From the NCBI GenBank assembly GCA_964106645.2, contig OZ067050.1: a stretch of DNA of 64,000 nt; one strand, given 5' to 3'. Source of the stretch: Podarcis pityusensis (taxonomy: Eukaryota). The translations under genes and the position numbers were made by a program. Positions 50,850 to 52,128 of this stretch are shown in pieces. Every line of letters starts with the position of its first letter. The stretch's first letter is position 1. The notes below the pieces were generated by a model. The model was given only the letters and a program-made list of their open reading frames with translations, did not search any database and was not told the DNA's origin.

Positions 50850-51000
50850 GCTCTGTGTGTGTGTGAGAGAGAGAGAGAGAGAAAGGGAAGGGGGAGGGCT
50901 TTGTTTCCATTGGCTGCTCCTTGCCTTCCCACCCACATCTCTTCCACATCACCTTGGTGTCTCCCTAAATAAAACCAGCCCTCCTTATCGCAGCGAGGAA
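50850..51000 (+). promoter_or_regulatory. Candidate ASIC2a core promoter
   Basis: (TG)n(AG)n tract, inverted CCAAT (ATTGG 50909-50913) and TATA-like TAAATAAAA (~50966-50974), about 280 nt upstream of the start codon; TSS not demonstrable from sequence. Confidence 0.4.
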
Positions 51001-51256
51001 ATCAAGCGGTAGAGTTGCAATGGATTTTAAATAAACATTTTACCCCCCCTCCCCACACACACTGTCCCTGCCAGGCTGCTGGGGAGAGCACGCAGCAAGC
51101 ACCTTCCCCACTGCCACCCAAACACTCACATGCAGCTGCCCTGCTTGCTGGCTGCTTCTGTTGCCTCTTTCACCCCATGAGGGAAAGCTGGAGCGCACGA
51201 GAAACTGGCTGCAGTCAGAGGAGGGAAGTGGCACCTTCATGACCAATCCTTTCTCC

Positions 51257-51820
51257 ATGGATTTAAAGGAGAGCACCAGCGAGGGAAGCCTGGGGAGCCT
51301 CCAGCCCTCCAGTCTCCAGATCTTTGCCAACACCTCAACCCTCCATGGAATCCGCCACATCTTTGTCTATGGACCTATGACTGTGCGGCGGGCCCTGTGG
51401 GCTCTGGTGTTTGTGGCTTCCCTGGGCCTCCTCCTGGTGGAGAGCTCCGAGCGGCTGGTCTACTACTTCTCCTACCAGCATGTCACCAGAGTGGATGAGG
51501 TCGTTGCCCACAGCCTGGTCTTCCCAGCTGTCACCATCTGCAACCTCAACGGGTTCCGCTTCTCCCGCCTCACTACCAATGACCTGTACCATGCTGGTGA
51601 CCTATTGGCCTTGTTGGACGTCAACCTCCAGGTCCTTCACCCTCATCTTGCTGACCCAGCAGTCTTGGCCATCCTGCAAGAGAAGGCCAACTTCCAACAT
51701 CACCGAGCCAAAGTCTTCAGCATGAGTGAGTTCATGGGGCGTGTGGGCCATGACATGAAGGAGATGTTGTTATACTGCAAGTTCCGGGGGCAGGAGTGCG
51801 GCGAGAAGAACTTCACAACT
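51257..51820 (+). CDS. ASIC2: Acid-sensing ion channel 2, ASIC2a-specific first coding exon (188 codons)
   Basis: MDLKESTSEGSLGSLQPSSLQIFANTSTLHGIRHIFVYG...FPAVTICNLNGFRFSRLTTNDLYHAG...CKFRGQECGEKNFTT matches the recalled ASIC2a N-terminus (HG motif, TM1, FPAVTxCNLN). The phase-0 donor ACT|GTGAGT at 51821 is at the expected position. The next exon (VFTKYGKCY) was not found in the window. Confidence 0.96.
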
Positions 51821-51928
51821 GTGAGTACAAACAAGAGTTTTGCCTTCCTTTTGGCATTGGTGGTAACAATGGGGACAACCAAGAAGTGAAAATTGGGTAT
51901 CTCTCTGGGAGACCTGGCTGATATATCT

Positions 51929-52128
51929 NNNNNNNNNNNNNNNNNNNNNNNNNNNNNNNNNNNNNNNNNNNNNNNNNNNNNNNNNNNNNNNNNNNNNNNN
52001 NNNNNNNNNNNNNNNNNNNNNNNNNNNNNNNNNNNNNNNNNNNNNNNNNNNNNNNNNNNNNNNNNNNNNNNNNNNNNNNNNNNNNNNNNNNNNNNNNNNN
52101 NNNNNNNNNNNNNNNNNNNNNNNNNNNN
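51929..52128. other. Assembly gap (200 N)
   Basis: Run of exactly 200 N. Confidence 1.

Follow-up and report, generated by a model that had tools for sequence, protein, structure and literature searches.

The window analysed is a 64,000-nt stretch of Podarcis pityusensis DNA (contig OZ067050.1), and the leader considered here precedes a first coding exon of the acid-sensing channel gene ASIC2a. The gene is identified by its coding frame: the frame opening at 51239 gives a Pfam match to the ASC family (E=1.5e-29), and the exon frame has ASIC2 as its best match in a PDB search (E=5.9e-94) and is 92% identical to ASIC2 of the leopard gecko. The exon thus combines the start of a DEG/ENaC (ASC) domain, ASIC2 as best match and an MDLK N-terminus, as expected of an ASIC2a first coding exon. 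All ATGs from 50000 to the main start were listed, and the features on which the analysis turns are the following.

51020..51034, plus strand: mini-uORF MDFK*, 4 codons, in the same frame as ASIC2a, strong Kozak context
51130..51180, plus strand: uORF1, 16 codons, weak context, its TGA lying within an ATGA that overlaps the uORF2 start
51177..51242, plus strand: uORF2, 21 codons, weak context, its TGA lying within an ATGA that overlaps the ATG at -18
51239..51256, plus strand: in-frame upstream start (the -18 ATG), which adds MTNPFS and is present in most squamate ASIC2a models
51257..51820, plus strand: first coding exon of ASIC2a, beginning at the canonical MDLK and bounded by the GT donor at 51821

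The leader is present as a single copy in the genome (G000). A second ASIC2-like first exon (43% match) is located on the plus strand about 234 kb downstream (G000:C13:23907293) and would represent the ASIC2b-type alternative first exon. The first intron contains a 200-base N gap (51929-52128) that begins 108 nt past the exon. The nearest protein cluster includes Zootoca and Podarcis entries with a similar intron read-through in their models. Three snake records named 'proline-rich protein 29' (P0045, P0047 and P0050) begin with ASIC2a sequence and are apparently read-through gene models fusing ASIC2 with a neighbouring gene. In squamates, exon 1 (51257-51820) shares common substitutions that are absent from birds, turtles and mammals, its identity being 85-95% within squamates versus about 79% to birds, turtles and mammals, which suggests that this exon may have changed faster on the squamate stem.

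The first-pass annotation had described the leader as a chain of uORFs joined by stop/start overlaps, and its coordinates are exact throughout: uORF1 (51130-51180) ends in an ATGA whose ATG at 51177 opens uORF2 (51177-51242), which again ends in an ATGA; the ATG of the latter, at 51239, shares the frame of MDLK (51257) and adds MTNPFS, and MDFK* occupies 51020-51034. The contexts of the three chain ATGs (51130, 51177 and 51239) are indeed weak, with a pyrimidine at -3 and a base other than G at +4, the A at +4 of 51177 and 51239 being forced by the ATGA overlap itself. The canonical ATG at 51257 is merely adequate (T at -3, G at +4), and the -18 ATG (T at -3, A at +4) is weaker still. From the MDFK stop it is 95 nt to uORF1 and 222 nt to the canonical ATG; from the uORF1 stop, 58 nt to 51239 and 76 nt to 51257; and from the uORF2 stop, 14 nt to 51257. 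The reported resemblance of MDFK to the true start holds as well (10 of 12 bases, with the first 11 nt 91% like the canonical start), at a chance level of about 0.5% for four upstream ATGs, assessed post hoc. We set this resemblance aside as a meaningful feature, since it was noticed after the fact and no mechanism needs it. A duplication origin of the chain was likewise rejected, uORF1 and uORF2 not being copies of one another. No stop interrupts frame 0 over the 68 codons that separate the MDFK stop from the -18 ATG (51035-51238), a stretch that contains several in-frame CTG, TTG and ACG codons; one as long is open in 13% of shuffles. A protein search with this stop-free frame-0 leader returned three matches, all confined to the MTNPFS/MDLK part, so that no longer extension is on record. 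A simple pattern scan of the leader revealed no splice-acceptor-like motif.

An A/T-rich element about 45-55 nt upstream of the MDFK ATG and an inverted element farther up, both noted by eye, are what we take to be a TATA-like box and a reverse CCAAT box. Together they suggest a transcription start near 51000. The mRNA would then begin above 51020-51130, and the MDFK uORF would presumably be part of it.

The -18 ATG was followed through related species by a comparison on protein records alone, where a model shows an open frame and not its use. Among 168 fetched proteins with an ASIC2-type motif, residues precede MD.K in 21, comprising 17 six-residue squamate extensions and 4 unrelated sequences. 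Of the 16 named squamate genera whose models are informative at the N-terminus, 12 have the extension: as MTKSFS in Eublepharis, MAKSFS in Sphaerodactylus, MTNSFS in Liasis, Vipera, Pantherophis and Notechis, and MTNPFS in Elgaria, Varanus, Anolis, Lacerta, Zootoca and Rhineura. The Pogona, Phrynocephalus, Ahaetulla and Podarcis models lack it, and in three unnamed squamate-like records the protein begins with MDLK (partial records of Python and Crotalus were left out; the main squamate cluster is represented by the 15 of its 39 members that were listed). As Varanus has one model with the extension and one without, these absences may be annotation choices; conversely, since models choose the first in-frame ATG, the extension demonstrates an open frame only. 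No six-residue extension was found in the Sphenodon, turtle, alligator, bird, frog or mammal records. In 11 of the 12 genera with the extension, Thr2 forces an ATGA at -18, and Ala2 of Sphaerodactylus implies ATGG, hence a start that is retained and an overlapping stop that is lost (according to one unreviewed gene model). The NPF of MTNPFS, an EH-domain binding motif, is kept in lacertids, anguimorphs, Anolis and Rhineura; as an endocytic motif of conserved function it was rejected, given NSF in snakes and KSF in geckos.

The available text of PMC7889888 describes a general selection against upstream AUGs and N-terminal extensions, and in this light the lasting presence of the -18 ATG is the most interesting fact of this comparison. 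This ATG is best read as a putative squamate-wide alternative start, although these sequences cannot separate selection on the start from a general conservation of start-near bases. The N-extended channel suggested in the first-pass annotation thus gains support from an in-frame -18 ATG in 12 of 16 genera, as far as an open frame in gene models can provide it.

Whether the double overlap exceeds chance had been left for a shuffling test. Dinucleotide shuffling of the 257-nt leader, repeated 20,000 times, produced a two-link ATGA chain that ends in frame in 0.09% of cases, with the rate varying by leader length (0.005% for 157 nt, 0.16% for 357 nt). Any two-link chain was found in 0.58% of shuffles, any single link in 14.6% and an in-frame upstream ATG in 32.6%. 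When the last 18 nt, shared among squamates, were held fixed, 29.8% of another 20,000 shuffles had a uORF terminating at the ATGA of the -18 start and 1.6% had the complete chain. Within the window, the full chain precedes 13 of 2302 ATGs when 257-nt pseudo-leaders are taken (0.56%; these stretches overlap and are not independent), and 146 of 1659 ORFs have their stop within an ATGA. A genome has on the order of 20,000 genes, so that 0.1-0.6% per gene translates into roughly 20-110 chance cases per genome. The chain is therefore above chance for one leader and not for a genome-wide post hoc look. The pattern is rare per leader, but it is expected genome-wide and was picked after the fact, and the double overlap has probably arisen by coincidence and not as a relay. 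Single ATGA overlaps were also seen within 300 nt upstream of two of seven other ASIC-family first exons of the same genome (L003, C12:638780-642283, and L005, C1:85816380-85819895, both in G000), their starts being guessed.

Another possibility is that the uORFs are mostly outside the mRNA or hardly translated, that the -18 ATG is kept by conservation of start-near bases, and that nothing here is regulatory. The four upstream ATGs of the leader match the shuffle mean of 3.5, three of them are weak, and the models of four genera out of 16 (Pogona, Phrynocephalus, Ahaetulla and Podarcis) are without the extension. Of the 24 listed sequencing runs, 14 contain at least half of the words of the stretch (DNA or unlabelled runs under six organism labels, with shares of 0.80-1.00), and the six RNA runs that contain any share at most 0.04; these figures are not evidence on expression, on the transcription start or on conservation. 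On the other hand, the TATA-like element and reverse CCAAT box point to a start near 51000, and the -18 ATG has kept the same distance from the canonical one in geckos through to snakes despite the general selection against such ATGs described in PMC7889888. On balance we regard a wholly non-regulatory leader as unlikely.

As to how the overlaps might work, the first-pass annotation had proposed a stepwise relay. A ribosome ending uORF1 would restart at the uORF2 ATG, and one ending uORF2 would restart at the -18 ATG to produce an ASIC2a longer by six residues (+6). According to the consulted portions of PMC10275272 and PMC5972666, viral AUGA coupling needs a TURBS element with a UGGGA core. 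The leader resembles the TURBS systems of caliciviruses and influenza B in that stop and restart are no more than about 20 nt apart, at both of its ATGA overlaps, but it differs from what those sources describe in having no UGGGA core, a fold no more stable than that of its shuffles and only short upstream ORFs. Specifically, no TGGGA (TURBS motif 1) is present within 100 nt of either overlap, the leader folds as its shuffles do (z of -0.27, with 71 of 200 shuffles as stable), and the ORFs upstream of the overlaps have 16 and 21 codons where TURBS has a long one. The leader is thus without two defining TURBS features, the UGGGA and the long upstream ORF. In a TURBS, a motif 2/2* stem presents motif 1; the leader contains a 15-nt inverted repeat (51087-51101/51142-51156, 87% complementary) with the uORF1 ATG in its loop, but this repeat has no motif 1 to present.

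By analogy, the ASIC2a leader appears most like that of SAPAP3 (Dlgap3), as far as the latter is described in the available text of PMC3387777. Both belong to vertebrate neuronal mRNAs with several uORFs, and in both a uORF of about 20 codons (uORF2 in either case; 23 codons there, 21 here) ends in a stop that overlaps an in-frame AUG as AUGA. SAPAP3 yields two N-terminal isoforms from one mRNA, to which the predicted +6 form would correspond here. The overlapped AUG of SAPAP3 is, however, the main start, with the second start 276 nt downstream, and its uORF is conserved and experimentally tested, whereas the ASIC2a leader has its overlap on a weak additional ATG, a putative start 18 nt before the canonical ATG, and contains a second overlap farther upstream. 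In the same account, ribosomes leaving the 23-codon SAPAP3 uORF bypass the overlapped main AUG.

Short uORFs that end on a stop overlapping the following start are also described for the SLAMF1 long leader and the GAD embryonic mRNA (PMC5972666, in the part available) and for Borna virus X/P (PMC2766071, likewise), all of them read by mammalian ribosomes. Their overlaps are UGAUG, with the start just after the stop, whereas here the start is 1 nt before the stop; moreover, SLAMF1 and GAD carry TURBS-like motifs, of which the ASIC2a leader has none. Stop/start overlaps are thus on record for vertebrate leaders, in SAPAP3, SLAMF1 and GAD. In more general terms, the sections consulted state that about half of vertebrate transcripts contain uORFs (PMC5972666), that partly overlapping uORF arrays are known (PMC2200052), that reinitiation after a short uORF uses starts downstream of its stop and needs distance, and that translation of an overlapping uORF is mutually exclusive with that of the overlapped ORF (both PMC10275272 and PMC5972666).

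Several observations do agree with a relay operating without TURBS: the exact double ATGA geometry (0.09% of shuffles); the ATGA at -18 in 11 of 12 extension genera, which a conserved second link would give in the same way; the length of both uORFs, below the 30 codons said to be permissive in mammals; and the Borna virus precedent for a coupled restart after a short uORF (PMC2766071, partial text). Against it stand the missing UGGGA and a structure no better than that of shuffles, the SAPAP3 counter-example as far as PMC3387777 describes it (bypass, not restart), the weak contexts of the chain ATGs, and the loss of the overlapping stop in the single unreviewed Sphaerodactylus model, the sole comparative test of the relay. 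The chain also stops short of the canonical ATG by 18 nt. According to a toy flux model, whose parameters were assumed and not measured, even a restart of 20% at each link would take the +6 form only from 7.6% up to 9.7% of the ribosomes loaded, with the canonical form staying at about 14%; at these assumed rates even a working relay would have little effect. These results do not support the stepwise relay as originally proposed. A relay dispensing with TURBS is, in our estimate, very improbable, and equally so the broader proposal that two TURBS-independent AUGA hand-overs set the share of +6 ASIC2a in lizard and snake neurons through a squamate-specific start. If true, it would amount to a chained translational coupling of the bacterial or viral style in a vertebrate brain mRNA, one that could be dissected with a few reporters.

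With the TURBS core absent, a shuffle-like fold, bypass in SAPAP3 and little gain in the toy model, we prefer an ordinary repressive uORF leader, against which the relay is poorly supported and probably not what operates here. Reading by leaky scanning, in which the squamate-wide start would account for a minor +6 ASIC2a, seems reasonably probable. Most ribosomes reaching the channel frame would skip the weak uORF1 and uORF2 starts or, alternatively, reinitiate in the ordinary way once past MDFK or uORF1, which end 58-222 nt upstream. A minority would initiate at the weak -18 ATG and yield the six-residue extension; the sequence features of a leaky-scanning extension are found, namely an in-frame upstream AUG with no intervening stop, a weaker context and retention in relatives (in protein models). 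Ribosomes that translate uORF2 would already be past the -18 ATG and, at 14 nt from the canonical ATG, too close for a good restart, and uORF2 would therefore lower the output of both forms. Some facts count against leaky scanning: one leader taken by itself would seldom contain such a chain (p about 0.001-0.006), and the accessible parts of the literature report coupled restart at UGAUG after the short Borna virus X uORF in mammalian cells (PMC2766071), backward movement of 40S subunits (PMC8593136, PMC9648851) and some human mRNAs that couple without TURBS, at low yield (PMC5972666).

The 5'-most uORF raises another possibility, a delayed reinitiation of the kind understood for ATF4, in which the strong MDFK uORF would capture most ribosomes. 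These would resume scanning and restart either at the inhibitory uORF1 and uORF2 or, under conditions of scarce ternary complex, at the starts of ASIC2a; channel synthesis would then rise under eIF2-alpha stress. MDFK, 4 codons long and with the only upstream ATG in a strong context (G at -3, G at +4), would provide a very short, well-initiated 5' uORF if the mRNA includes it. As in ATF4/GCN4, in the sources consulted, further uORFs follow about 100 nt later (uORF1 begins 95 nt after the MDFK stop, the canonical ATG 222 nt after it), and uORF2 ends too near the ASIC2a starts to be permissive. A two-uORF model is described in the available portion of PMC9648851. The model, however, needs two well-translated uORFs, and those expected to be inhibitory here are weak; the well-translated inhibitory uORF overlapping the main start, typical of ATF4, has no counterpart, as uORF2 overlaps the -18 ATG alone and ends 14 nt before the canonical one. 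It also requires a transcription start above 51020. We therefore consider ATF4-like control decidedly unlikely, and retain leaky scanning through an ordinary repressive leader as the preferred account.

Overall, the sequence pattern is real, but of an ordinary kind. In the open-access papers searched, we found nothing on ASIC2 uORFs or the six-residue extension, and nothing relevant on the ASIC2 promoter or transcription start, or on ASIC2 in lizards. On the likelier reading by leaky scanning the value of the observation is modest: squamate ASIC2a would have a lineage-wide extra start that is annotated inconsistently (521 versus 515 residues). This discrepancy is relevant to the cloning of ASIC2a from reptiles, because gating and trafficking are influenced by the N-terminus of ASIC2a, as reported in the available text of PMC4967927. 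According to the same text, N-terminal GFP fusions of ASIC2a reached the surface, and six extra residues may therefore do little.
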